In this document: in pieces, positions 14,223 through 63,992 of the stretch
Layout: every line of letters starts with the position of its first letter
Position numbering within the stretch: the stretch's first letter is position 1
IMG/VR virus record: IMGVR_UViG_3300029288_000059
Location: 32,001 to 96,000 of that record
Origin: a virus
Lineage: Duplodnaviria > Heunggongvirae > Uroviricota > Caudoviricetes
Direction: 5' to 3' (one strand)
DNA: 64,000 bases
Made by a program: the position numbers and the translations under genes
Notes under the pieces: generated by a model
Seen by the model: only the letters and a program-made list of their open reading frames with translations
Told to the model about the DNA's origin: nothing
The model's database searches: none

Positions 14223-15521
14223 ATGGTAAACATCTTAAAATTAATAAACGAATATAGGGTCTATAACGATACTGCTTTAAGTGACTACTTGAAACAATAC
14301 ATTCAAAACCCATATCTTTATAAGTTATTTTATAAAGAAATATCTAATAATACCCAATATATGTCTAAAATAACATCTAAACTTACTAATGAATGGGATA
14401 TTAAAGACAGAGAACAAGATACATTACGCGAATTTGAACCAAATGACAACTTAACCAATCAATTAACCCATATAAGGGACTGGTTGACAGCTAGTAATCC
14501 AAATCCAGCCACATTTAACACTATTAAAAATATTGATATGGCTTTTAATATAGCCGACACGTGGTTTAATAAACAAAAAGTGACTAATACACAAGATGGC
14601 GTATCAGGCACTAAATTAATACATACATATAGTGATGGTTATAAGATATTACAACTGCTTACTCCAACAGCACTTGATTACGAGTCACAACACATGGGGC
14701 ATTGTGTGGGTAAAGGGACTTATGATACTAAAGTTACTAGTGGTGATACGATAATATACTCATTACGTGATACTAAAAATATACCCCATGCCACATTGGA
14801 AGTAACTGATAACACACTTAAACAAATAAAAGGTAAGCAAAATCAACCAGTTGTTGAGAAATATCGCGACTATATAACAGATTTTATTAATCTTAATAAC
14901 TTTAAAGATGTTAATGATGTTAAAAATATTGGCATGATTAAATTAGATAACAAAGTATATACACTCAAACAACTTTATGAAATGAAAGATATTATTGTAG
15001 AAGGAAATGTTGATTTATCGAAGTTGGGATTAACCACGTTACCTCATTTCAAAAGCATAGGCGGTATATTTGATTGTGGTGATAACAAATTAACAAGTTT
15101 AGATGGATGCCCAACTTATATAGGTGGTTATTTAGATTGTAGAGGTAACCAATTAACAAGTTTAAAGGGTTGTGCTACTTATATAGGTGGTAGTTTTGAT
15201 TGTCGTTATAACCAATTAACAAGTTTAAAGGGATGTCCTACTAGTATAGGTGGTGGTTTTGTTTGTAGTTTTAACCAACTAACAAGTTTAGAAGGTTGTG
15301 CTACCCGTATAGGTGGTGGGTTTCATTGTCGTTATAACCAATTAACAAGTTTAAAGGGATGTCCTACTAGTATAGGTGGTGGTTTTGTTTGTAGTTTTAA
15401 CCAACTAACAAGTTTAGACGGATGCCCAACTTATATAGGCGGTATATTTGATTGTGGTAATAACAAAGTTAAATTATCACGTCCTAAAGGAGTTAAGATT
15501 AGGGGTAATTTTTATAATTAA
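14223..15521 (+). CDS. MVNILKL-leader protein with PcfJ-like domain and six 21-aa LRR-like repeats
   Basis: ESQHMGHCVG..Y, IYSLRD...PHATLEV, QIKGKQN (PcfJ-like); repeats xxCxxNQLTSLxGCPTxIGG; paralog of 58542. Confidence 0.75.
   Translation: MVNILKLINEYRVYNDTALSDYLKQYIQNPYLYKLFYKEISNNTQYMSKITSKLTNEWDIKDREQDTLREFEPNDNLTNQLTHIRDWLTASNPNPATFNTIKNIDMAFNIADTWFNKQKVTNTQDGVSGTKLIHTYSDGYKILQLLTPTALDYESQHMGHCVGKGTYDTKVTSGDTIIYSLRDTKNIPHATLEVTDNTLKQIKGKQNQPVVEKYRDYITDFINLNNFKDVNDVKNIGMIKLDNKVYTLKQLYEMKDIIVEGNVDLSKLGLTTLPHFKSIGGIFDCGDNKLTSLDGCPTYIGGYLDCRGNQLTSLKGCATYIGGSFDCRYNQLTSLKGCPTSIGGGFVCSFNQLTSLEGCATRIGGGFHCRYNQLTSLKGCPTSIGGGFVCSFNQLTSLDGCPTYIGGIFDCGNNKVKLSRPKGVKIRGNFYN
15060..15460 (+). repeat. 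63-bp tandem repeats (21-aa LRR-like units)
   Basis: AACCAATTAACAAGTTTA recurs at 63-bp spacing; a ~90-bp block is repeated at a 126-bp offset (about 15200 and 15326). Confidence 0.9.
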
Positions 15522-33960: not shown

Positions 33961-34351
33961 TTTGAAAGTTACCCAATATTGTTATATGAACGGGGTGTGA
34001 TAGTTTTATTTTATTATTATAGCAATAGAATCCTCGTCCTGTATATAGAGGACTGTAATCCAAATTAGTTAATTGGTTATCCTCACAATGAAACCCACCA
34101 CCTACATAAATCGGGCAACCTTCTAAACTGGTTAATTGATTATCGTTACAGGTGAAATGACTACTCACATATTTAAATAGGGGTAGGGAATTCCCGTCTG
34201 CACGACAGTACCCTCTAATGATAATATTATTACTACCATTTAGACGAAGATAATAGTTTTGTTGTATATTATAATCGGATTCACATCTCCATTCTATTTT
34301 ACTATATGGCTCTAGTTTCCGTTTATATGGATTTATATAACTTTTCTTCAT
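33953..34351 (-). CDS. LEPY-family protein with two LRR-like repeats
   Basis: KRKLEPY; NIIIRG; LPLFKYV; NQLTSLEGCPIYVGG. Confidence 0.8.
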   Translation of the reverse strand: MKKSYINPYKRKLEPYSKIEWRCESDYNIQQNYYLRLNGSNNIIIRGYCRADGNSLPLFKYVSSHFTCNDNQLTSLEGCPIYVGGGFHCEDNQLTNLDYSPLYTGRGFYCYNNKIKLSHPVHITILGNFQNE

Positions 34352-34550
34352 ATATTAATGAACTCAATCTTGTATATGGTTCTTGTACTTATTAAATTTC
34401 TTACAGTATTTAATCCGTTTGAATGCATTGAAGTCATCAACCCCACGCCCTCATAACTACTAATGTTAATTAACAGTTAATTAAACTTAATTTAACCTAT
34501 CATTATTAATTTAACAAGACGGTATTTTTATAAATATAACAAATAATGAA

Positions 34551-35174
34551 TTGGAGTACAAGAACATGAGTATGAATCGTCAACAAAGATATACATATAC
34601 AATAACTTTAACCGATACAGATATCATCGGTTCGACTGTTGGATTCGTTACTAATAAGAAGATATGGCAGTATGATACGTTCACAACGGTTAAACCATTT
34701 ACTCCTGGTACTAATATACCAACATCAACCGCGATTTCAACAATGTTATCCGCTAGTAATTTTAGATGGAATCAAATATTAAAAAACATTGGATTTAATG
34801 CAATGCCTATATTAATTGGCAATGTCGTTACTAGTTCAATGACGATAGACACTTGTCCATCAACGATTACATTTGATGTAGTATATGAGAATGTTGACTA
34901 TATAACATATCCAGATAGTTTTAATGACGGGGTTGTCTTAACCGGTGTTGATGCAATAAAGAGAATGGTTTCTCTTGTATTAGCTAACCAATATTCACAA
35001 CAACTTTGTGAAGTGTTTAATGCCACTTTAGATGATTTAAATCGTCCATACGGGGTTAGTACTATTAAGATTGATATATTACCAATAGTAACTGGTTCAA
35101 CACTAGAAGCCCGTGTAACGGCATTAGAAACTAATAATATAACAGTTACCGTGGTCAAGGAAGAGATTATCTAG
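34551..35174 (+). CDS. Probable virion structural protein
   Basis: TATAAATA at 34529-34536; Thr-rich; true start probably the ATG near 34567 after GGAG. Confidence 0.5.
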   Translation: MEYKNMSMNRQQRYTYTITLTDTDIIGSTVGFVTNKKIWQYDTFTTVKPFTPGTNIPTSTAISTMLSASNFRWNQILKNIGFNAMPILIGNVVTSSMTIDTCPSTITFDVVYENVDYITYPDSFNDGVVLTGVDAIKRMVSLVLANQYSQQLCEVFNATLDDLNRPYGVSTIKIDILPIVTGSTLEARVTALETNNITVTVVKEEII

Positions 35175-35459
35175 TTACAAAATGTTATTCATTACGGGGT
35201 GATTTATTTTTAATTCATTTGAGTCACTTTCCGTAAATTGTGATACTCTACCTTCATCATGCCATACTCTTAATGCATATAAACATTTTGTCGTACTAGT
35301 TAATAAAACGTATGTTTCATGGTTATTAGTATTTTTTAATATAATGTTAAGAGTATCACCATATGCAACGCATTGATTCCAGGTATTCCACCATAAGTTA
35401 GGATTACCTGTTTCTACTTGTAACTCACCCCGTTCTTCTTCTGGTCTAAACATAATCAT
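35175..35459 (-). CDS. Hypothetical early protein
   Basis: GGAGG RBS; TTGACT-N16-TATAAT on minus strand at 35508..35481. Confidence 0.55.
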   Translation of the reverse strand: MIMFRPEEERGELQVETGNPNLWWNTWNQCVAYGDTLNIILKNTNNHETYVLLTSTTKCLYALRVWHDEGRVSQFTESDSNELKINHPVMNNIL

Positions 35460-35562
35460 TCCTCCATAATATATTTTTATATTATAACAAACTTTAGCTT
35501 AAAGTCAAGTAGTTGACTTTTATATTTGTATAATCTATTATGTTGAAACTGGAGATGACGGA

Positions 35563-37067
35563 TGTTATTTAACATCATATAATCTATTACATTTTATAAC
35601 AAAATACAACATTATTTGTATATAAAACATATTGACTGACTTATTAATTTAGTACATAATAACGTTAAATAATAAGGAATTTATATGATACGTACAAGTA
35701 CTCATTCTATACAAGACAGCAATACAGGTAAGTTAAACAACTTGGCTATATTGCATAATGAGTACATACGGGTATGTACGCAACTGATTGATTATTGTTG
35801 GGATAATCCAGTTATTACTTCTTATACATCAAGTGATAACATAATACATACTACTACTTTTGACGTATCACGTAATTTATTTGACTTGCCTGTATTTTTA
35901 CCAACTAACATAACAAAACTAGCCAAAATTGATACCTTTTTAACGGGTAAATCCCTTAAAAGTATCATTACTAAAGTGAATGGTATGCTTAAAGCAAGTA
36001 CTATTAAACAAAGAAAACGCATATACCAATATAATAAATTAAAGCAAGAGGGATATACTAAAAAACAACTATCTTCCCTTATTAAGAAAATAAAACAAAA
36101 TATACCACAAAAGCCAAATTGTTCCAATATCAATATGGAATACGATACCAATTGTTGTAAATTCTATTATACTAATAAAAATAACAATGAATTCAATGGG
36201 TTTGATGGCTTTTTACGTCTTACCGCCATTACTAAAAGTAAGATGAATATATGTATTCCTATTAAGATGACTAAACATTCTAATAAATTTAAAGATATTG
36301 GAAAGATGAAGACTTCCTTCCTAATAACACCAAAGAAAGTAGATATTAGATGGGATATACCAACACCACAACTCTGCACAACTGGTGAAGTTGTTGGTGC
36401 GGACCAAGGACTGTTAGATGTATTGACCCTATCAGATAAACAAGTAACAACCAAAGTAGACATACATGGACATACGCAGAAATCCATTATAGACAAAGTA
36501 TGTAGGAAGAAAAGAGGAAGTAAGGCATTTAAACGTGCTAAACAACATCAAGTCAATTTTGTTAATTGGTCTATCAACCAACTCAATTTTGATAATGTTA
36601 AGCAAGTAAATTTAGAAGATATATGGAACATTAATTATAAGAAGAATTCATGTTCAATGCTAACGCATTGGCAGAATACTATTATCAGAGACAAGTTGTT
36701 GTCTGTTTGCGAGCTACTCGGGGTCCGAGTAATCAAACAGGCATCTACTTATAGAAGTCAAAGATGTAGTGCGTGTGGACAAGTGCGGAAGTCGAATCGG
36801 AAAGGCAAGCTCTATACCTGCCATAATTGTGGTTTAGATATGGATGCAGATTTAAATGCATCTATCAATCTAAGTATGGATTTACCTGAAATCCCGTGGA
36901 ATTTACGCAAACTTAATTTGAATAGAAAAGGGTTTTACTGGACAAAAGACGGGTTGTTTAGTGATAACACCTATCTAGATAGATTAAGCGATGGGAGTTT
37001 ACAGTCCCCATCTCCGAATAAACTTAAAACAATACAAAGTTAATAATGTATTGGTTTAGGTGACTGT
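35563..37067 (+). mobile_element. Non-autonomous IS607-type tnpB element 1
   Basis: Left end TGTTA(T/A)TTAAC..CATATAATCTATTAC shared with element 2; right end ..GTATTGGTTTAGGTGACTGT; TGT at both borders; removal restores GGAG-N7-ATG TTG AGA TAT TTA GAA CCT TAT. Confidence 0.85.
35685..37043 (+). CDS. tnpB: TnpB RNA-guided endonuclease
   Basis: RuvC GADQG / NLED / DADLNA all intact; CSACG and CHNCG zinc finger. Confidence 0.9.
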   Translation: MIRTSTHSIQDSNTGKLNNLAILHNEYIRVCTQLIDYCWDNPVITSYTSSDNIIHTTTFDVSRNLFDLPVFLPTNITKLAKIDTFLTGKSLKSIITKVNGMLKASTIKQRKRIYQYNKLKQEGYTKKQLSSLIKKIKQNIPQKPNCSNINMEYDTNCCKFYYTNKNNNEFNGFDGFLRLTAITKSKMNICIPIKMTKHSNKFKDIGKMKTSFLITPKKVDIRWDIPTPQLCTTGEVVGADQGLLDVLTLSDKQVTTKVDIHGHTQKSIIDKVCRKKRGSKAFKRAKQHQVNFVNWSINQLNFDNVKQVNLEDIWNINYKKNSCSMLTHWQNTIIRDKLLSVCELLGVRVIKQASTYRSQRCSACGQVRKSNRKGKLYTCHNCGLDMDADLNASINLSMDLPEIPWNLRKLNLNRKGFYWTKDGLFSDNTYLDRLSDGSLQSPSPNKLKTIQS

Positions 37068-37087
37068 TGAGATATTTAGAACCTTAT
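36985..37087 (+). ncRNA. 3' part of predicted omegaRNA (reRNA) plus flanking guide; 5' limit unknown
   Basis: Hairpins GATGGG..CCCATC and CAATAC..GTATTG; the second is conserved at all three right ends; guide = flank TGAGATATTTAGAACCTTAT. Confidence 0.6.
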
Positions 37088-37360
37088 AATTCAATACAAC
37101 GTACTCCTATTATACATTTAAAGAATACTAATATGATTAGTCGTGAATCCATATATGTTCGTTGGTATCATAATTCAATTAAATATATTGGTTCCGATGT
37201 ATACGTTAGAGAGGATGAATTTATAATTAACAATTACCCTCGATATATTGGCGGTAAATTAATGGTATCAGGAGTTAGTTATACATCGATGGTTAATGAT
37301 TTCACACGTTATATTAATGATCATGGTATCGTTATAATGAAAGGATTAAGTTTTGGTTAG
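37067..37360 (+). CDS. LEPY-family protein whose start codon was split by element 1
   Basis: (M)LRYLEPY; NMISR; IKYIG; YPRYIGG; may now start at TTG after AGGTG. Confidence 0.65.
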   Translation: MRYLEPYNSIQRTPIIHLKNTNMISRESIYVRWYHNSIKYIGSDVYVREDEFIINNYPRYIGGKLMVSGVSYTSMVNDFTRYINDHGIVIMKGLSFG

Positions 37361-37640
37361 GTATTTAGAGCCTTATATCCAACATATAGATATTAATGAT
37401 GTAGTTAGATATAAACGCTATATCTGTCGTAAGAACCTATCATTAGAAAAACTTAATATGGATAGTATATTATCAATCAAATATATTAACGGTAAATTGT
37501 ATTATAAATCATTAGACCAATGGAAGAATCACGATTTTACTTTTTATTGTAATACATTGGAATATCAGAACCTATGGTGTGATTACCCAACCATTTTTCT
37601 TGGAAGTAGATTTCATGAATGTGGTATAATCCATGTATAG
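37353..37640 (+). CDS. LEPY-family protein
   Basis: MVRYLEPY; IKYING. Confidence 0.65.
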   Translation: MVRYLEPYIQHIDINDVVRYKRYICRKNLSLEKLNMDSILSIKYINGKLYYKSLDQWKNHDFTFYCNTLEYQNLWCDYPTIFLGSRFHECGIIHV

Positions 37641-37899
37641 AAATTTAGAACCATACAAAAAAATAATACATAATAATAGTGAAGTTTATAGTACTTCCCA
37701 TGAGTATAAATTTACTTGTAAATCTATAGAACAGAAGTATAAGAATCAAGTATTGCGTTTTGATAGCTACTATTCCAGCGACATATATTACAATTTCTAT
37801 TTTGGTTATAGAATATTCAATAACGTAGGAATGGATAATCAACCATTGAAATATGGTACTAATATATTTGAACATATGGGCGTCTTTTTGGAACTGTAA
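37633..37899 (+). CDS. LEPY-family protein
   Basis: MYRNLEPY; NQVLR. Confidence 0.65.
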   Translation: MYRNLEPYKKIIHNNSEVYSTSHEYKFTCKSIEQKYKNQVLRFDSYYSSDIYYNFYFGYRIFNNVGMDNQPLKYGTNIFEHMGVFLEL

Positions 37900-37912
37900 T
37901 ATTGGGTCAACG

Positions 37913-38197
37913 ATGATTAGACTTCTTGAACCATACTTAACTTATAGTTTATCCCATAATAAATTAAGAGATATGCATTAGTATTCTTATAATTGTATTA
38001 CTAGTGGTAGTAAACAGATTCTGTGTAGTCACGAATTATGTTGTAATTTAATTCACCAAGTTACGATTATTCATAATGATAAACGTGATGATAGTGACTA
38101 TTATAGAATGTTTTTACGAATGAAGTATTTTAATATGAATTATAATGAACGCTCATACGAATTCGTTCATGTGAAACATTGTGATATAGGTCGTTAA
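37913..38197 (+). pseudogene. LEPY-family gene with in-frame TAG (37979-37981)
   Basis: MIRLLEPY...DMH* then the frame stays open for 71 more codons to TAA at 38195. Confidence 0.65.
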
Positions 38198-38904
38198 ATA
38201 ACCCCTTCATTACGATAGAATGTATATAACGTTTCAATCCATTCATCTTTGAGTGTATCAAATTCTTTACCATTAAAGACAAACTCTTGATATCCCCCTG
38301 TTCTATCGGCTATAAACAATACACCTTGATTTATATTTGTATCGTATAATTGATTATGTGCTATGGCGTATGCTGCGAGTTGTAACTGATACCCTTTAAT
38401 ATATTCTAGTTTTTTAGGTTTTTTTGTATTCTTATAGTCCATTATACTTGGAACACCTTTAAACGTCCCAATAAGGTCACTAGTACCAGCATAAAGCCCT
38501 TCCATATATAAACGGGCTTCACAGCCCCATACCTCCTGTACGTTGATTACCCCCTTATTTACGATGGCATTAGCTTGTAGTTGGGCAATCTTATATATCG
38601 CATTAGAATAATTAGGTATGGGTGTACCATTAACAACATATTCTTCTAACATTTCATGCATTAACGTACCTAGTTCAGATGCTTCTTTACCTTCACGCTC
38701 GGCTTGTTTGACACCAATACGTTTTTTCCATTCTTCTAAGAACGCATGGTCACTAGTTTCACCAAGTATCGTTGTAACTGAATGTATGTACTTATGAGTC
38801 TTAGGACATAGATATACCCGTCTACCCTTTGAATCAGTATTACGTTCGAATGTTGGATAGATATACTTATTAAGAATATGCATTATATAGGTTCCCAGTA
38901 ACAA
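38194..38904 (-). CDS. PD-(D/E)XK exonuclease
   Basis: SVTTIL, EWKKRIG, GTLMH..LE, YAGTSDL, DYK, QLAAYA.AHN. Confidence 0.85.
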   Translation of the reverse strand: MLLGTYIMHILNKYIYPTFERNTDSKGRRVYLCPKTHKYIHSVTTILGETSDHAFLEEWKKRIGVKQAEREGKEASELGTLMHEMLEEYVVNGTPIPNYSNAIYKIAQLQANAIVNKGVINVQEVWGCEARLYMEGLYAGTSDLIGTFKGVPSIMDYKNTKKPKKLEYIKGYQLQLAAYAIAHNQLYDTNINQGVLFIADRTGGYQEFVFNGKEFDTLKDEWIETLYTFYRNEGVI

Positions 38905-38967
38905 AATTAAATTTTGACTTACGTATGTAATATGTTAAAGTTAATTGAATTTAAAGGAGAAGTCAAA

Positions 38968-39339
38968 ATGTATATGATTAGCAAGACGGTTGAATTAGGA
39001 CATTCTATTTATACTGGTGGTTCTATCCGAATTGGTTTAGAATTCGATGATGTCGTAAATGATACAGATAAGGAATTTTATTCAAAGTTAATTGATTCAT
39101 TAGACCATACAATTATTACCATCGATGAATCAATTAAACAACAATCACGTAGATATTTTTTATTGAAGTCTTCATCTAATATTTTTTATGATATATGTTA
39201 TGTAATAACTAGTCTATTGAAAGATTCACCTAAGAGTAATAAGGAAAGATTTAAAATCCATATTGAATACGGGGATGAAACATATACGGGTGGGATGATA
39301 GTTGGTGAACATTTAATAAGTTATAATATAGAGGGTTAG
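38968..39339 (+). CDS. Degenerate QueD/T-fold-like protein
   Basis: MYMISKTVELGH start and IDSLDH motif resemble QueD; HxH absent; adjacent to queD. Confidence 0.4.
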   Translation: MYMISKTVELGHSIYTGGSIRIGLEFDDVVNDTDKEFYSKLIDSLDHTIITIDESIKQQSRRYFLLKSSSNIFYDICYVITSLLKDSPKSNKERFKIHIEYGDETYTGGMIVGEHLISYNIEG

Positions 39340-43984: not shown

Positions 43985-45004
43985 ATGGTTAATATATTAA
44001 AGTTATTAGATGAGAAACGTTCACACGATGGATTGAACGTAAGAGTATCAACATATCAATTTTTATCAAAATATAAAAATGACCCAAATGCTTATCTACA
44101 TACATCAGCTATTAAGAAGATTGGTATTAAACCATTAACAAATGCAGAAGATGATACTCCATTAGGCGTTTATACTTTTAAAATAATGGATATATGGAAA
44201 CGGATTGAAGCTAGTAAGGATAAGAATGATTTATCATATCAACTAACTTACTATGGTGGTCCTGAATTATACATACTGCATCCAACTAAACCAATCATGG
44301 ATGAAAATACTTATACATTAAGTATGTATAAGAAAGATTTGAAACGATTAAATATTACACAAAAACGTGAATTAGAATTATTGTCCGATACTGGATATAA
44401 GTATAAGAATCTAAAACTACCATTATATAGATTTTGGGAAATAACTAAGTTATATGTTTGTGACTTCGACTATGGTGCTAATAACCCAGTTAAATGGAAT
44501 AACTTGTTAAGAAAGTTAGGCTATTATATTTTTAGTGATGATGGGGTTGGTTATATTCATGACCACGAACCAGTTCAAACGGTATTCTTAACAACTAATG
44601 CATTTGAAGTAATTGATACACATTATAACAATGAAGTATATAAAGTTAAGGTAGATGATAAAGAGTTACGTTCAAACCGTTTATCATCTATAATGAATAC
44701 TAAAACTTTACATCCATCTTACGATGATGAAATTCGTCCTGAACAATACCGTAATGTAAAAGTATGGAATGTTAAGGAAGTTGGATTACAAGAGTTACAT
44801 GACTTCTATGATGATTATGGTAGGACTGGTATGACTATTAATGTTGGTAAATTAGTTATCCCACATACTGTTATTGATTCATTAGACTATATATGTGATA
44901 ATATGAATAAATTTAAAACTATTAATGTTAATACTGTACATATTGATGGTGGTAAGAAAGAGGATTATGATTTAATCCCCTTTAAGTATAATGGTATTGT
45001 ATAA
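43985..45004 (+). CDS. MVNILKL-leader late protein
   Basis: MVNILKLLDE leader; CATAAATA at 43957; GGGAG RBS. Confidence 0.65.
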   Translation: MVNILKLLDEKRSHDGLNVRVSTYQFLSKYKNDPNAYLHTSAIKKIGIKPLTNAEDDTPLGVYTFKIMDIWKRIEASKDKNDLSYQLTYYGGPELYILHPTKPIMDENTYTLSMYKKDLKRLNITQKRELELLSDTGYKYKNLKLPLYRFWEITKLYVCDFDYGANNPVKWNNLLRKLGYYIFSDDGVGYIHDHEPVQTVFLTTNAFEVIDTHYNNEVYKVKVDDKELRSNRLSSIMNTKTLHPSYDDEIRPEQYRNVKVWNVKEVGLQELHDFYDDYGRTGMTINVGKLVIPHTVIDSLDYICDNMNKFKTINVNTVHIDGGKKEDYDLIPFKYNGIV

Positions 45005-45017
45005 TCTGTTATGATAA

Positions 45018-46523
45018 TGTTAATTAACTTCATATAATCTATTACATTTTATAATATAATACAACATTATTTGTATATAAATAATATATTGACTTCTTTG
45101 TTAATGAAGTACATACTAACTTTAAATAATAAGGAAGTTATATGATTAGAACTAGTACTCATAATATACAACAAAGCAATACAGGTAAGTTATCTAACTT
45201 AGCTATATTGCATAATGAGTATATACGTGTATGTTCTCAACTGATTGATTATTGTTGGGATAATCCAGTTATTACTTCATATACGTCAAGCGATAACATA
45301 ACCCATACTACTACTTTTGATGTATCACGTAATTTATTTGATTTGCCTGTATTTTTACCAACTAACATAACAAAATTAGCTAAAATTAATACTTTTTTGA
45401 CAGGTAAATCACTTAAAAGTATCATTACTAAAGTGAATGGTATGCTTAAAGCAAGTACTACGAAACAAAGGAAACGTATATACCAATATAATAAATTAAA
45501 ACAAGATGGATATACTAAAAAGCAATTATCACAACTGATTAAAAAAATAAAACAAAATATACCACAGAAACCAAATTGTTCCAATATTAATATGGAATAC
45601 GATACCAACTGTTGTAAATTCTATACAACTAATAAAAATAACAATGAATTCAATGGGGTTGATGGCTTTTTACGTCTTACTGCCATTACTAAAAGTAAGA
45701 TGAATATATGTATTCCTATTAATATGACTCGTCACTCGAATAAATTCAAGACTATTGGTAAAATGAAGACTTCCTTCCTAATAACACCAAAGAAAGTAGA
45801 TATTAGATGGGATATTCCTACTCCTGTATTACGCACAACTGGTAGTATAGTCGGTGCAGACCAAGGACTATTAGACGTATTAACCCTATCAGATACACAA
45901 GTTACCACTAACGAAGACATACATGGACATACTCAAAAATCCATACTAGACAAGGTATGTCGTAAGAAAAGAGGTAGTAAGGCCTTTAAACGTGCTAAAC
46001 AACACCAAGTCAACTTCGTTAATTGGTCAATCAACCAACTCAATTTTGATAATGTTAAGCAAGTAAATTTAGAAGATATATGGAACATTAACTATAAGAA
46101 GAATTCATGTCAAATGCTAAAACATTGGCAGAATACTATCATCAGAGACAAGTTGTTGTCTGTTTGTGAATCACTCGGGGTCCGAGTGGAGAAGCAGGCA
46201 TCTACTTATAGAAGTCAAAGATGTAGTTGTTGTGGGCAAGTGCGGAAATCGAATCGGAAAGGGAAAACCTATACGTGCCATAATTGTGGTTTAGAACTAG
46301 ATGCAGACTTAAATGCATCTATCAATCTAAGTATGAAGTTGCCTGAAATCCCGTGGAATATCCGCAAACTTAATTTAAATAGAAAAGGGTTTTACTGGAC
46401 TGCCAATGGCATATTCAGTGATAATACCTATCTAGATAGATTAAGTGATGGGCGTTTACAGTCCCCATCACCAAAAAACTTAAAACAATACAAGGTTAAT
46501 AATGTATTGGTTTAGGTGACTGT
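45018..46523 (+). mobile_element. Non-autonomous IS607-type tnpB element 2
   Basis: Close copy of element 1 along its whole length; TGT at both borders. Confidence 0.85.
45142..46515 (+). CDS. tnpB: TnpB RNA-guided endonuclease
   Basis: GADQG / NLED / DADLNA; CSCCG, CHNCG; highly similar to 35685. Confidence 0.9.
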   Translation: MIRTSTHNIQQSNTGKLSNLAILHNEYIRVCSQLIDYCWDNPVITSYTSSDNITHTTTFDVSRNLFDLPVFLPTNITKLAKINTFLTGKSLKSIITKVNGMLKASTTKQRKRIYQYNKLKQDGYTKKQLSQLIKKIKQNIPQKPNCSNINMEYDTNCCKFYTTNKNNNEFNGVDGFLRLTAITKSKMNICIPINMTRHSNKFKTIGKMKTSFLITPKKVDIRWDIPTPVLRTTGSIVGADQGLLDVLTLSDTQVTTNEDIHGHTQKSILDKVCRKKRGSKAFKRAKQHQVNFVNWSINQLNFDNVKQVNLEDIWNINYKKNSCQMLKHWQNTIIRDKLLSVCESLGVRVEKQASTYRSQRCSCCGQVRKSNRKGKTYTCHNCGLELDADLNASINLSMKLPEIPWNIRKLNLNRKGFYWTANGIFSDNTYLDRLSDGRLQSPSPKNLKQYKVNNVLV

Positions 46524-46697: not shown

Positions 46698-46994
46698 ATG
46701 AGTTTATTTTATGTAACCACTAATGCATTAGAGTGTGGAATTGGTTTATATCATGGTGAATTATTGGAGAATAATAAAGTAGTCTTACAAGCAGATAAAA
46801 AGGAATACGAGTTAAACGTTGATTGTTTTACCAGTTTAACGGCTGCACGTAATAAGTTACGGGAAATGACTGATGATGAGATTAACCGTTTAGAGTGTAA
46901 TATAAGCAATTTAAAGAATACGTTGAATCGTTTAAAGAATTCACCTTTTTGTTCTAGTAATTTTATTGACTGTGAAGATGTTAATTTAACATGA
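46698..46994 (+). CDS. Hypothetical early protein
   Basis: TTGACT-N17-TATACT promoter at 46636; AGGAG RBS. Confidence 0.6.
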   Translation: MSLFYVTTNALECGIGLYHGELLENNKVVLQADKKEYELNVDCFTSLTAARNKLREMTDDEINRLECNISNLKNTLNRLKNSPFCSSNFIDCEDVNLT

Positions 46995-47368
46995 CTAGAT
47001 ATTTAGAACCATATAAAGAACAGAAGGGAAGTTACCCACGTATATGTAGTGATAGGTATTATGAATTGAACGCTAGTCATAAATGGAAAAATATCATCAC
47101 TCGTTATTCATTAGTATTAACAACTCGTGCTACTCCAACTCATATAATTCCGAGTATTAAGTACATTAATTGGAATATAACAATGGAGGACGGTAGTTTG
47201 TTGCCCGTGTGTAAGAACCCCTTTTATGTAGGAAATGATATTTTTACAAATGGAAATACATCAAATGACTTAGTAGAACATTATGTATTAGGCGAACATA
47301 CAAAATGGTATTGTAATGTTTCTAAAAATAGTTCACCTTTTTATGTAACTCATTGTAGCAGTATATAA
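46991..47368 (+). CDS. LEPY-family protein
   Basis: MTRYLEPY; NIITR; PSIKYI; PFYVG. Confidence 0.7.
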   Translation: MTRYLEPYKEQKGSYPRICSDRYYELNASHKWKNIITRYSLVLTTRATPTHIIPSIKYINWNITMEDGSLLPVCKNPFYVGNDIFTNGNTSNDLVEHYVLGEHTKWYCNVSKNSSPFYVTHCSSI

Positions 47369-47739
47369 TGAGATATTTAGAGCCATATATCAAGCATGAT
47401 AATTCTATATTAAATAATACGTATGAAGACGTTGTACTTCGTAGTCGTGAAGAATCGAATTATAGTAATATAATAGTGAGAGGTACGGCAGCGATTGGTT
47501 GTAGTAGAAGTTGGTTTCGTCCTTATTATAAGTATGTAAAAGACAACTTTTTAGGTAGTCCGATTTATGCAGGAGGATTATTATGTTGTAATAATTTTGG
47601 TTTAAAATCATTAGACAGATTTCCATTAGCGATAGGTAAAGATTTATATTATTCAAATAATAATATTCCCATTCACGAAGTTATATCAAAAATTCATCCT
47701 TTTGTTGGTGGGTTACTTATAAGTAATAAATATACTTAG
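47368..47739 (+). CDS. LEPY-family protein with LRR-like units
   Basis: MRYLEPY; NIIVRG; YKYV; GSPIYAGG; LKSLDRFP. Confidence 0.7.
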   Translation: MRYLEPYIKHDNSILNNTYEDVVLRSREESNYSNIIVRGTAAIGCSRSWFRPYYKYVKDNFLGSPIYAGGLLCCNNFGLKSLDRFPLAIGKDLYYSNNNIPIHEVISKIHPFVGGLLISNKYT

Positions 47740-58328: not shown

Positions 58329-58541
58329 CAGTTTAATACTCCCGAAATAATTAAATGAAGTAGAGGGACGGTAGCATAATCATTAACCCATGATGATAAA
58401 CGTATATCATCATTATGTTTGATTCTTAATGCCATTGTTGTTCTCCTCATTAATTGTTTATAATTTAATAATAACATATTACGATATAATGTCAATATCC
58501 ATTTTTAATAAATATAGTTAATAGTGATAAGGAAGATTAGT

Positions 58542-59777
58542 ATGGTAAACATCTTAAAATTATTAAACGAATATAGGGTCTATAACGACAATACTTTAAG
58601 TGACTACTTAAAGCAATACATTCAAAATCCTTATCTTTATAAGTTATTTTATAAAGAAATATCTAATAATCCAAAATATATGTCCAAAATAACATCTAAA
58701 CTTACTAATGAATGGGATATTAAAGACAAAGAAAATGATACATTACGCGAATTTGAACCAAATGACGACTTAACTAACCAACTAATACATATACGTGATT
58801 GGATTACTCGCAGTAATCCAAATCCAGCCACATTTAACACTATTAAAAATATTGATATGGCTTTTAATATAGCAGAAACTTGGTTTAATAAACAAAAAGT
58901 AACAAATACACAAGATGGTGTTACTGGTACTAAATTAATACATACATATAGTGATGGTTATAAGATATTACAACTACTTACTCCATTAGCACTTGATTAC
59001 GAATCACAACACATGGGGCATTGTGTGGGTAAAGGCGGTTATGATACGAATGTTACTAGTGGAAAAACTATAATTTACTCACTAAGGGATACTAAAAATA
59101 TACCCCATGCTACATTAGAAGTAACTGATAATATACTCGAACAGATAAAGGGTAAGCAAAATCAACCAGTTGTTGAGAAATATCGCGACTATATAGCTAC
59201 TTTTATTAATCTTAATAACTTTAAAGATGTTAATGATATTAAGAGTATTGGTATGATTAAATTAGATAACAAAATATATACACTAAAACAATTATACGAA
59301 ATGAAGGATATTGTTGTTAAAGGAGATGTAAATTTAAGTAGTATGGGATTAACCAAGTTACCTCACTTCAAAAGCATAGGTGGTTATTTAGATTGTAGAG
59401 GTAACCAATTAACAAGTTTAGAAGGTTGTCCTACTAGTATAGGTGGTTATTTAAATTGTTATCATAACCAATTAACTAGTTTGAAGGGTTGTGCTACTTA
59501 TATAGGTGGTAGTTTAAATTGTAGTGGTAACCAATTAACAAGTTTAGAGGGTTGTCCAATTAGTATAGGTGGTGTTTTTAATTGTATGCATAATGCATTA
59601 ACTAGCTTACGATATGGTCCTAAGTATGTAGGTGGTGATTTATGGTGTAACGATAACAAATTAACCAGTTTAAAATATTGTGCTACTAGTATAGGTGGTG
59701 GGTTATATTGTTATGATAACAAAGTAGAATTATCGCGTCCTAAGGGTATTAAGATAGGTGATGGATTTAGTAATTAA
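58542..59777 (+). CDS. MVNILKL-leader protein with PcfJ-like domain and five 21-aa LRR-like repeats
   Basis: Close paralog of 14223; AATAAATA at 58507; AAGGA RBS before ATG at 58542. Confidence 0.75.
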   Translation: MVNILKLLNEYRVYNDNTLSDYLKQYIQNPYLYKLFYKEISNNPKYMSKITSKLTNEWDIKDKENDTLREFEPNDDLTNQLIHIRDWITRSNPNPATFNTIKNIDMAFNIAETWFNKQKVTNTQDGVTGTKLIHTYSDGYKILQLLTPLALDYESQHMGHCVGKGGYDTNVTSGKTIIYSLRDTKNIPHATLEVTDNILEQIKGKQNQPVVEKYRDYIATFINLNNFKDVNDIKSIGMIKLDNKIYTLKQLYEMKDIVVKGDVNLSSMGLTKLPHFKSIGGYLDCRGNQLTSLEGCPTSIGGYLNCYHNQLTSLKGCATYIGGSLNCSGNQLTSLEGCPISIGGVFNCMHNALTSLRYGPKYVGGDLWCNDNKLTSLKYCATSIGGGLYCYDNKVELSRPKGIKIGDGFSN

Positions 59778-62259: not shown

Positions 62260-62353
62260 TAATTAAGTTCATTTAAAATGACATATTTTAATACATAAAT
62301 CAACATATTTTGTAAAATGTTATAAATAATGTATATAACATATAGGTGATAAA

Positions 62354-62515
62354 ATGCAACGAATTAGATTATCAAAATGGGCAGAATTAAACGGATATAC
62401 AAAAAGAGGAGCGTATAATCTGTTTAAACAAGGAAAATTACCCAATGCAACTCAATTACCTACTGGTACTAAACGTAAGACTGAGAAGTTAATACAGGAA
62501 CTTAATAATGATTAG
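62354..62515 (+). CDS. tnpA: Internally deleted IS607 TnpA (53 aa: MerR-type HTH plus C-terminal helix, no catalytic domain)
   Basis: MQRIRLSKWAELNGYTKRGAYNLFKQGKLPNATQLPTGT|KRKTEKLIQELNND; AGGTGA RBS; overlaps tnpB start. Confidence 0.75.
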   Translation: MQRIRLSKWAELNGYTKRGAYNLFKQGKLPNATQLPTGTKRKTEKLIQELNND

Positions 62516-63788
62516 GTCAAGTAAGCTATCACTTAAATTTATGAATACTAATAAACGTGATAGATATAACGAGTTCCTACTTGACTATAATCATGCAGTA
62601 CAATTTTATATCAATTACTTATGGAATACCGAAATCACAAGAAATATTAAAGATAAACAATATAAATGGTATCCATCAAAACAGATGTATGAACTACCAA
62701 CTATGTTATCAACCACGGATATACAAATAGATACTCCTTTATCAGCCCGAGCTTTGAAATGTGCAATTACTCAATCTATTGGCATTATACAATCAGTTGT
62801 ACGAAAATATAATAAGAAGAAATATGTATTAACAAAAAAACAGAAATCGAATACTCAATCTATTAGAAAATTACAAAGTTTTATTGATAAAAATCAACCA
62901 ACCAAACCATTAATAAACAAAATAGAGATGGAACTAAACTCAATAGTGGCTAAATTAGTTGATAATAAAACAAAATTTGATTGTTTGCTTAAATTATCAT
63001 GTTTAGGTAAGAAGTATGGTACTATTATAATACCAATAAAATACACGACACATAGTAATAAATTAAGCAATATGGGACAAGTCAAAACTTCTTTCTTGTT
63101 TGGAAACAATGCAGTTTCATTTAGATATGATATAGAACCAATACATAATACGTCAAATGTGATAGTTGGTGGTGATATAGGGCAAACTACTACTTTGACT
63201 TTAAGTGATGGAAATATAACCAAGCCAAATAATCATGGGTATGACTTGAAGTTAATCAATAACATCATGGCAAGGAAGAAAAAAGGAAGCAAGGCATTTG
63301 CCCGTTGTCAAGCACACAGAACTAATTATATAAATTGGTCTATTAAACAACTAAACTTAGGTAATTATAAAGAAATAAGACTCGAATCGAATAAAAATAT
63401 CAAGAAGGGACGTAGAATGAGTAAGTCACTTACTCACTGGTCTTGGAAGGATATTAATAATTCCATAACAATGAATGCGGAACTACATGATGTTCATGTA
63501 GTAATGCAACATCCGACTTATAAAAGTCAGAGATGTAATTGTTGTGGTTATGTACATAAAGGAAATCGCAAAAGTAAATTGTTCAAGTGCCGTCATTGTG
63601 GTTATACTGCGGATGCGGATTTGAATGGTGCTTTGAATAATAGCATTGATTTGCCTATTATTAGTCGTACCTTTATGGCTGAAAAACATAATACCATTGG
63701 TTTCTTTTGGAATACAACTGGTATTAGTTTATCGGGAGAGGCACGTACAGTTCCTCTTACTAAAAAACATAAACCAATACAAGGTTAA
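62508..63788 (+). CDS. tnpB: TnpB RNA-guided endonuclease
   Basis: GGDIG / IRLES / DADLNG; CNCCG, CRHCG. Confidence 0.9.
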   Translation: MIRSSKLSLKFMNTNKRDRYNEFLLDYNHAVQFYINYLWNTEITRNIKDKQYKWYPSKQMYELPTMLSTTDIQIDTPLSARALKCAITQSIGIIQSVVRKYNKKKYVLTKKQKSNTQSIRKLQSFIDKNQPTKPLINKIEMELNSIVAKLVDNKTKFDCLLKLSCLGKKYGTIIIPIKYTTHSNKLSNMGQVKTSFLFGNNAVSFRYDIEPIHNTSNVIVGGDIGQTTTLTLSDGNITKPNNHGYDLKLINNIMARKKKGSKAFARCQAHRTNYINWSIKQLNLGNYKEIRLESNKNIKKGRRMSKSLTHWSWKDINNSITMNAELHDVHVVMQHPTYKSQRCNCCGYVHKGNRKSKLFKCRHCGYTADADLNGALNNSIDLPIISRTFMAEKHNTIGFFWNTTGISLSGEARTVPLTKKHKPIQG

Positions 63789-63800
63789 TAATGTATTGGT

Positions 63801-63992
63801 TTAAGTAACTGTGTTTTTCTTTTTAGCCTCAATTTCATTCCGTTTAATTATTTTAGCGTTATTAATAGCAACTTCTTCTGCTATGATTTCATCTTTCAAT
63901 TCGTAATTACCGTTTTGGGTACATACGAAGTCTTCTATATCTTCCTTTAATTCGTCATCATCAACATTGGCACAGACGCTATTAGGGTCCAT
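63801..63992 (-). CDS. 5' part of the gene interrupted by element 3 (may begin beyond window)
   Basis: Now ends in element-derived VT*; frame is open to the window edge. Confidence 0.65.
   Translation of the reverse strand: MDPNSVCANVDDDELKEDIEDFVCTQNGNYELKDEIIAEEVAINNAKIIKRNEIEAKKKNTVT

Follow-up and report, generated by a model that had tools for sequence, protein, structure and literature searches.

Does a TnpB nuclease whose predicted guide spells out the signature of a gene family act against that family, or has its element simply come to rest in one of the family's members? The question is raised by a locus in a jumbo phage (Caudoviricetes) represented by the 289,811-bp IMG/VR virus record IMGVR_UViG_3300029288_000059, of which bases 32001-96000, a stretch of 64,000 nucleotides (nt), form the window analysed here; coordinates refer to this window unless the genome is named. 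A TnpB element, element 1 (E1), interrupts the start of a small gene of the LEPY family, whose members begin with M-x-R-x-LEPY. An initial annotation of the window proposed that the nuclease of E1 is aimed at this multicopy family, with chance insertion as the fallback. We put the probability at about 75% that E1 is an ordinary, if neatly placed, IS607-type insertion whose guide specifies only its own empty site. The features of the locus are as follows.

35513..35541, plus strand: orphaned LEPY promoter, TTGACT (35513-35518), 17 nt, TATTAT (35536-35541); 10 of 12 consensus matches
35551..35565, plus strand: orphaned ribosome-binding site GGAG (35551-35554), 7-nt spacer, ATG (35562-35564) and T; the ATGT is the presumed target-adjacent motif (RTGT)
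35566..37067, plus strand: E1, IS607-type, TnpB-only, 1502 bp; borders common to seven copies
35632..35660, plus strand: E1's own tnpB promoter, TTGACT, 17 nt, CATAAT; conserved in E1-E4
35685..37043, plus strand: tnpB, 452 amino acids; Pfam PF07282, E = 3.7e-14; matches to Cas12f and TnpB structures in PDB
36943..37067, plus strand: predicted omegaRNA scaffold, overlapping the tnpB 3' end and terminating ...GGUGACUGU; from fold, consensus structure and covariance model
37067..37360, plus strand: interrupted LEPY gene body, 97 codons still open; from the reading of the open frame
37068..37087, plus strand: predicted guide TGAGATATTTAGAACCTTAT, the first bases after the shared right-end border

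The borders of E1 follow from comparison with its copies. When the E1 protein was searched against the whole record, it matched six places, E1 to E6; these and L007, a 79%-identical element from a different metagenome, constitute the seven-copy set. E1 and E2 are 88.8% identical over 35562-37067 and 45017-46523, respectively, and unrelated outside this span. In the alignment of the copies, similarity begins after (R)TGT on the left and ends abruptly after ...GGTGACTGT on the right, the right-end homology of E1 closing at the TGT 37065-37067 and its left TGT lying at 35563-35565. As TGT occurs at either border, the junction can be placed only to within 3 nt, and 35563-37064 is an equivalent span. 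All right ends, from E1 to E6 and L007, finish ...GGTTAATAATGTATTGGTTTAGGTGACTGT, and the 20 bases that follow differ in each copy. The left flanks (GGATGT, TAATGT, TAATGT, GATGTGT, ACGTGT and AATGTGT) all terminate in TGT. In E1-E5 and L007 a TGT marks each of the two junctions, the flanks being otherwise unrelated, and neither inverted repeats nor a target duplication accompany it. Since position -4 of the left flank is a purine (A or G) in seven of seven cases, the motif is better written RTGT; the same position in the right ends is C, both in this phage (7/7 ends) and in the relatives whose ends were printed (26/26).

Excision of E1 in silico brings together the promoter, the GGAG, the 7 nt and ATG TTG AGA TAT TTA GAA CCT TAT, which encodes MLRYLEPY. 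The reconstructed uninterrupted gene start, ATGTTGAGA..., is in frame with the 97-codon open reading frame 37067-37360. The flanks and the seven-copy borders thus bear out the initial annotation, according to which removing the element at its TGT borders restores the promoter (TTGACT at 35513), the GGAG and MLRYLEPY. E1 is a true insertion into the ATG-T of a LEPY gene. Because the flanks of the copies share only TGT, they carry the signature of site-specific recombination and not of homing with co-conversion; sharp borders without co-converted flanks point to insertion by a recombinase at a tolerated site.

The insertion has left traces on both sides. Upstream, the orphaned LEPY promoter, which stands back to back with the minus-strand promoter of the gene at 35175-35459, now transcribes into E1, and the orphaned ATG at 35562 starts a stub reading frame of 6 codons that enters the left end of the element. 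Downstream, the right junction makes CTG TTG AGA, in which the TTG at 37067 is a possible substitute start, with AGGTGA 3 nt upstream of it in the right end of E1. A hybrid promoter created by the right end was considered and rejected, as this end has no -35-like hexamer at proper spacing.

The protein encoded by E1 has the features of a working nuclease. Its domain is a Cas12f1-like TNB domain (PF07282), and structures of Cas12f and TnpB align with its C-terminal part, the profile covering residues 188-368 of ISDra2 TnpB; the alignment to Cas12f matches the RuvC-II glutamate and the RuvC-III aspartate residue by residue. The RuvC residues D240, E311 and D389 and the zinc-finger cysteines C361, C364, C379 and C382 are invariant in an alignment of 12 sequences comprising E1 and 11 relatives. 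Pairwise ratios of nonsynonymous to synonymous divergence (dN/dS) among E1-E4 are 0.10-0.16 at a synonymous divergence (dS) of 0.47-0.73, and the copies are thus old and their protein maintained. These data agree with the earlier description of the nuclease as catalytically intact: the TnpB of E1 looks like an intact enzyme under purifying selection and is probably active. Identity as a TldR, a nuclease-dead repressor, was rejected on the grounds that the RuvC catalytic residues are intact and invariant.

To which elements is E1 related? A megablast search with 34000-39000 against 50,697 phage records gave zero matches, so that a close relative is absent from that deposited set, and tblastn with the E1 TnpB returned distant matches only (at most 31% identity). 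TnpB relatives at about 50% identity are numerous, 52 of them on IMG/VR contigs, many of which measure 100-370 kb. One protein of 49% identity is labelled as coming from a Richelia metagenome-assembled genome; no relative was found in GTDB genomes with a search of limited sensitivity that used two peptide patterns only. A 52%-identical relative (L008; phage-like contigs of up to 369 kb) possesses a 198-residue Resolvase-domain tnpA that overlaps tnpB, which is the architecture of IS607. In contrast, the whole 290-kb record contains zero matches to TnpA of either type, Resolvase (PF00239) or Y1 (PF01797). As tnpA is absent here, present in L008 and reduced to a stump in E5, E1 emerges as a non-autonomous IS607-type element; by its sequence it is a non-autonomous member of the IS607 family of insertion sequences, with tnpB and an omegaRNA and no tnpA.

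Rfam searched over 35500-37200 at E <= 10 produced zero matches, be it to RAGATH-18, a group I intron or any other family. An IStron, in which splicing would restore the mRNA, was rejected: there is no Rfam intron, non-coding sequence amounts to about 145 nt, and about 120 nt separate the left border from tnpB.

Where the guide begins depends on where the RNA scaffold ends. The last 228 nt of E1 fold, as a single sequence, with a z-score of -4.76 relative to shuffles. In the consensus structure of the seven copies the final GACUGU pairs with an internal ACAGUC and a terminal hairpin forms, E5 and L007 showing compensatory changes; despite a dS of about 0.5, the right-end scaffold is almost invariant among the copies. 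A covariance model built from the seven copies matched 34 of 49 related phage loci, every match lying where tnpB ends, 3' and on its coding strand. In the resulting 34-locus alignment, 86% of cells are paired as against 62% in column shuffles and 36-42% with slid partners, and 28 of 35 pairs show double changes, although the alignment is fitted by the model and these pairing figures are somewhat inflated. The right ends of the relatives read ACTGT, ACTCT or ACTAT (ACT-N-T), and the variable N, the penultimate base, covaries with its internal partner (CG in 8, GC in 7 and UA in 6 sequences). Across the clade, the RNA structure thus appears to reflect the recombination core too. With the genome itself excluded, the right-end motif of E1 had 0 matches in IMG/VR.

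In the IS605 and IS607 TnpBs that have been studied, the guide derives from the right flank (PMC8612924, PMC10690162), and in CboIStron, an IS607 member, the scaffold end UCGG and the target-adjacent motif TGGG contain the same core (PMC10690162). As the covarying scaffold of E1 extends through the right end to its final base, its guide should, by analogy, be the right flank 37068-37087 and its motif RTGT (PMC8612924, PMC10690162). The initial annotation had likewise taken the guide from the right flank, and the reach of the scaffold supports that choice. Read in the sense direction, the predicted guide corresponds to LEPY codons 2-8 (L-R-Y-L-E-P-Y).

Could this guide direct TnpB to other members of the family? 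The phage has at least 20 LEPY genes, seven of which start with ATGT, consistent with the earlier remark that many members begin in this way. They lie at 20443-47739 of the window and at 14 further sites in the genome. Only guide positions 4-18, encoding R-Y-L-E-P, represent the family motif. The two near matches reported by the initial annotation are exact as given, 47369-47388 at 18/20 and 46995-47014 at 17/20, preceded by ATATAA and ACATGA, respectively, and hence by no TGT. Six other sites in the genome match the guide with up to three mismatches, all without a TGT before them, and a TGT is likewise missing before further matches with 3-4 mismatches outside the window. The paralogs that are preceded by ATGT, at 37637 and 22242, each have five mismatches (positions 1, 2, 6, 17 and 20 and positions 2, 6, 8, 14 and 17, respectively), of which three fall within the motif-proximal 12 nt in both; the initial annotation had noted seed mismatches in paralogs of this kind. 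Studied TnpBs are not known to tolerate mismatches in these 12 nt. Neither a paralog nor any other site in the 290-kb genome combines TGT with four or fewer guide mismatches. The sole predicted target is E1's own, unobserved, empty site.

We extended the search for targets and for the empty site beyond this phage. TGT followed by 16 nt of guide, required to match exactly, occurred once in IMG/VR and three times in the metagenome collection, which is about the chance expectation; all four matches are inside longer open frames, none at a gene start and none at the start of a LEPY-family gene. The exact empty-site junction had 0 matches in IMG/VR, and a related-locus search of IMG/VR with the 97-residue LEPY protein did not find the uninterrupted gene. 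Among 5.8 billion proteins the interrupted LEPY protein matched only itself, with no homologue outside the phage. Two other contigs carrying the interrupted gene are 100% identical to the window and also occupied. Thus, no paralog is predicted to be cleavable, and the strong form of the proposal, a nuclease aimed at the multicopy family, fails on present data by its own standard. As far as sequence can tell, the guide carries the family motif because of where E1 sits, which does not argue that the family is targeted, and the fallback of a chance insertion at an ATGT start fits best.

These elements can be combined into a scenario. A serine-recombinase TnpA, supplied in trans, would at some time in the past have put E1 at an RTGT site, which by chance was the ATG-T of a LEPY gene, the LEPY genes being the largest accessory family of the phage. 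The insertion would have survived because this LEPY gene was dispensable, being one of at least 20 paralogs. E1 points the same way as the gene, so that tnpB, the omegaRNA and, by read-through, the LEPY frame would be transcribed from two promoters, that of the LEPY gene and that of the element, and the first 16-20 nt of LEPY coding sequence after the last scaffold base would serve as guide. This guide would specify E1's own empty site, ATGT and then TGAGATATTTAGAACC...; in a sister or co-infecting genome that lacks the element, cleavage of this site by TnpB would lead to E1 being copied into it through recombination. TnpB would leave the occupied site intact, since the right end there is CTGT and not RTGT. 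No other LEPY member would be a target, and the family motif would be a by-product of the landing place.

Several observations weigh against this scenario. The record, 79% complete by CheckV, contains no TnpA, so movement of the copies by such an enzyme is presumed. With neither an empty-site allele nor an uninterrupted orthologue found, the pre-insertion state is reconstructed, not observed. The LEPY frame is open over 97 codons in a genome of 31% G+C despite having lost its ATG, which means either that the insertion is recent or that the gene is still expressed. Finally, two of the six elements (E1 with 6 sites and E4 with 24) have recurring right flanks, which has a binomial p of about 0.016, calculated post hoc; a preference for repeated motifs, and not pure chance, could be at work.

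The copies that enter into this comparison are listed below; positions are in the window where so stated.

Window 45021-46523: E2, with tnpB at 45142-46515, 92% amino-acid identity to E1
Outside the window: tnpB of E3 and E4, 91% and 85% identity to E1, respectively
Genome 148005-149530, outside the window: E4 (L004), between the TGT and the TATACT of a consensus promoter
Window 42981 (minus), 46659 (plus), 50870 (minus) and 58473 (minus): copies of the consensus promoter
Window 62261-63812: E5, with tnpB at 62508-63788, 38% identity; left flank ACGTGT, right end AACTGT
Genome about 129582-129706: E6 (L006), a solo right end of about 124 nt with a 29-residue tnpB fragment

E2 was inserted 5 nt past the stop codon of the gene 43985-45004. 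The promoter at E4 is the phage consensus, TTGACa and an N16 ending in TGT, followed by TATACTTAAATTATAAACA. The E4 guide corresponds to the -10 region of this promoter except at position 9, where it has T and the promoter A. With up to three mismatches it matches 24 other sites, mostly promoter copies that follow a TGT and show this difference. E5, whose predicted guide is GTTTTTCTTTTTAGCCTCAA, retains a tnpA stump of 53 residues (62354-62515) that overlaps tnpB and has lost the catalytic domain; the stump matches the N-terminus of the L008 TnpA (51% over 37 residues, E = 1e-9). E6 retains the whole omegaRNA scaffold and its own guide, CCATATCAACATAAACGACT. E1, E2 and E4 are co-oriented with local genes and transcription, and none of E3-E6 is near LEPY genes.

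How remarkable is the landing place of E1? The genome contains 5170 RTGT sites, and about 80 of some 433 crudely called genes start with ATGT, the seven LEPY genes included. The expected chance that at least one of six insertions falls at a gene start is about 9%, and that one falls at a LEPY start about 0.8%, the latter for a category picked after the fact. As to recurrence, 1500 TGT sites were sampled, and in 3.3% of them the right flank is found again five or more times at three or fewer mismatches. The simplest account is a survivorship filter, by which insertions last where they are harmless, in a redundant gene or at one of many promoters; the co-orientation of E1, E2 and E4 with local transcription fits such a filter. 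That guide-driven ectopic homing contributed is improbable.

Alternative explanations assign E1 a wider role or none. If TnpB of E1 cut other LEPY genes, in its own genome or in those of co-infecting relatives, the element might home into paralogs, turn over cassettes or kill competitors; with a guide carrying the family motif, its jumping or killing could extend to paralogs and to related co-infecting phages, in effect an RNA-guided gene drive on diversifying cassettes. The R-Y-L-E-P shared by the family does occupy most of the guide, near matches in such number (six for E1) occur for only about 3% of random TGT sites, and E4 repeats the theme with a guide that matches the consensus promoter at about 24 sites, with 1-3 mismatches and mostly after TGT. 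A TnpB that is selected while TnpA is absent is likely to have a role independent of TnpA, and the concept of non-restorative homing, with co-infecting phages as recipients, is accepted (PMC13565253, Table 1). Yet every site within four mismatches lacks the TGT, the ATGT-preceded paralogs have five mismatches, three of them in the motif-proximal stretch, the flanks of the copies show no co-conversion, the searches of IMG/VR and the metagenome collection gave no LEPY-type target with motif and guide, and E3-E6 are remote from LEPY genes. Taken together, this makes family targeting unlikely. We are equally doubtful of the broader idea that TnpB elements of a TnpA-less phage persist and spread by RNA-guided homing favoured at multicopy motifs such as LEPY starts and the consensus promoter.

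Still less probable, by a little, is that E1 is a decaying relic, its TnpB and omegaRNA unexpressed or inactive, which merely knocked out one redundant gene. The lack of TnpA and the age of the copies (dS 0.47-0.73) would fit such a relic, and the solo right end E6 and the TnpA stump of E5 are instances of decay in this genome, but dN/dS of 0.10-0.16 across four copies, with all catalytic and zinc-binding residues kept, a scaffold almost unchanged at a dS of about 0.5 and the retention by every copy of its own promoter speak for maintenance. The least probable of these alternatives, in our estimate, is co-option, in which TnpB and guide, instead of serving selfish homing, would regulate or guard the LEPY array, by binding or nicking 5' ends or by supplying transcription and the new TTG start. 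Two arrays hold the four R-Y-LEPY genes of the phage, and a TnpB element lies directly upstream of each, E1 abutting its array and E2 at about 470 bp. The co-orientation of E1, E2 and E4, the intact LEPY frame and the AGGTGA 3 nt before the TTG could be cited in the same sense, and domesticated TnpB regulators (TldR) exist in phages (10.1101/2023.11.30.569447). However, TldR-type regulators are devoid of the RuvC residues that are invariant here, the guide is sense to the mRNA, which makes an antisense effect impossible, no paralog offers motif and seed together, and 3 nt is poor spacing between a ribosome-binding site and a start. The proximity of E2 could be coincidence, LEPY genes being dense in the window.

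Some further observations concern the neighbourhood of these elements. The bodies of the LEPY proteins are very divergent beyond their common start, although some share an internal (S)IKYI(N/G) motif, and the proteins had zero matches in Pfam and PHROGs. A tag that is constant at the N-terminus of otherwise variable proteins may be compared with the capsid-targeting leaders of T4 internal proteins. The array about 470 bp downstream of E2, the only R-Y-LEPY array besides that at E1, comprises the genes at 46991 and 47368, which are also the two best near-matches of the E1 guide. A PcfJ-like domain is present in two paralogous proteins of about 420-430 residues, encoded at 14223-15521 and 58524-59777 of the window. 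In the related jumbo-phage contigs of L008 and L009, the full IS607 relative is situated directly 3' of a ribonucleotide reductase gene; three inteins, with endonuclease domains of the HNH and LAGLIDADG types, interrupt that gene, and the place looks like a hotspot of selfish elements.

Among known systems E1 most resembles IS607 elements such as CboIStron (PMC10690162) and those with RAGATH-18-guided TnpBs (PMC11061315). It shares with them a TnpB with RuvC and zinc finger, close relatives that have an overlapping serine-recombinase tnpA, the lack of inverted repeats and of a duplicated target, a short core common to left flank and right end, and an omegaRNA scaffold predicted to end in this core before a flank-derived guide. 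Most IS607 members have a GG core dinucleotide and a G-rich motif (PMC13565253, PMC10690162). The core of E1, in contrast, is (R)TGT, and that of its relatives TCT or TAT, whereas the IS607 motifs TGGG, AGGAG and GAGGG are GG-based. Unlike the RAGATH-18-guided TnpBs, E1 has an RNA without Rfam match; unlike CboIStron, it has no group I intron; and unlike IS607 elements with an upstream TnpA, all its copies in the phage are devoid of tnpA. A TGT instead of a GG core, an RNA without Rfam match and several TnpA-less copies under purifying selection in one phage are departures from the textbook IS607.

The proposed cycle of E1 is comparable to the cut-and-copy homing of ISDra2 and IS200-IS605 elements (PMC8612924; 10.1101/2023.03.14.532601), with the guide from the right flank, the motif in the left flank, and a nuclease expected to cut the empty donor joint so that recombination restores the element. 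It would differ in that the transposase partner is a serine enzyme and not a Y1 HUH enzyme, hence in double-stranded instead of single-stranded DNA movement, and in that the likely recipient is a co-infecting phage genome and not a sister chromosome. Like the Seg and Mob homing endonucleases of T4-like phages (PMC13565253), E1 may be a selfish nuclease of a lytic phage that spreads to related genomes in the same infected cell by cutting the allele lacking it; unlike them it is RNA-guided, and has discrete, transposon-like borders in place of the fuzzy borders of co-converted islands.

In conclusion, our analysis provides a full dissection of a natural IS607-type TnpB element in a lytic jumbo phage, with exact borders, a putative RTGT motif set against a self-protecting CTGT, and a covariation-supported omegaRNA family without Rfam match. 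Family-wide targeting would have been notable; the sequence gives it no support. Clades of TnpB elements without TnpA raise the question of what use TnpB is to the phage, for which homing between co-infecting genomes is the obvious candidate. Such clades are, besides, a source of compact nucleases whose motif is unusual in being T-rich.

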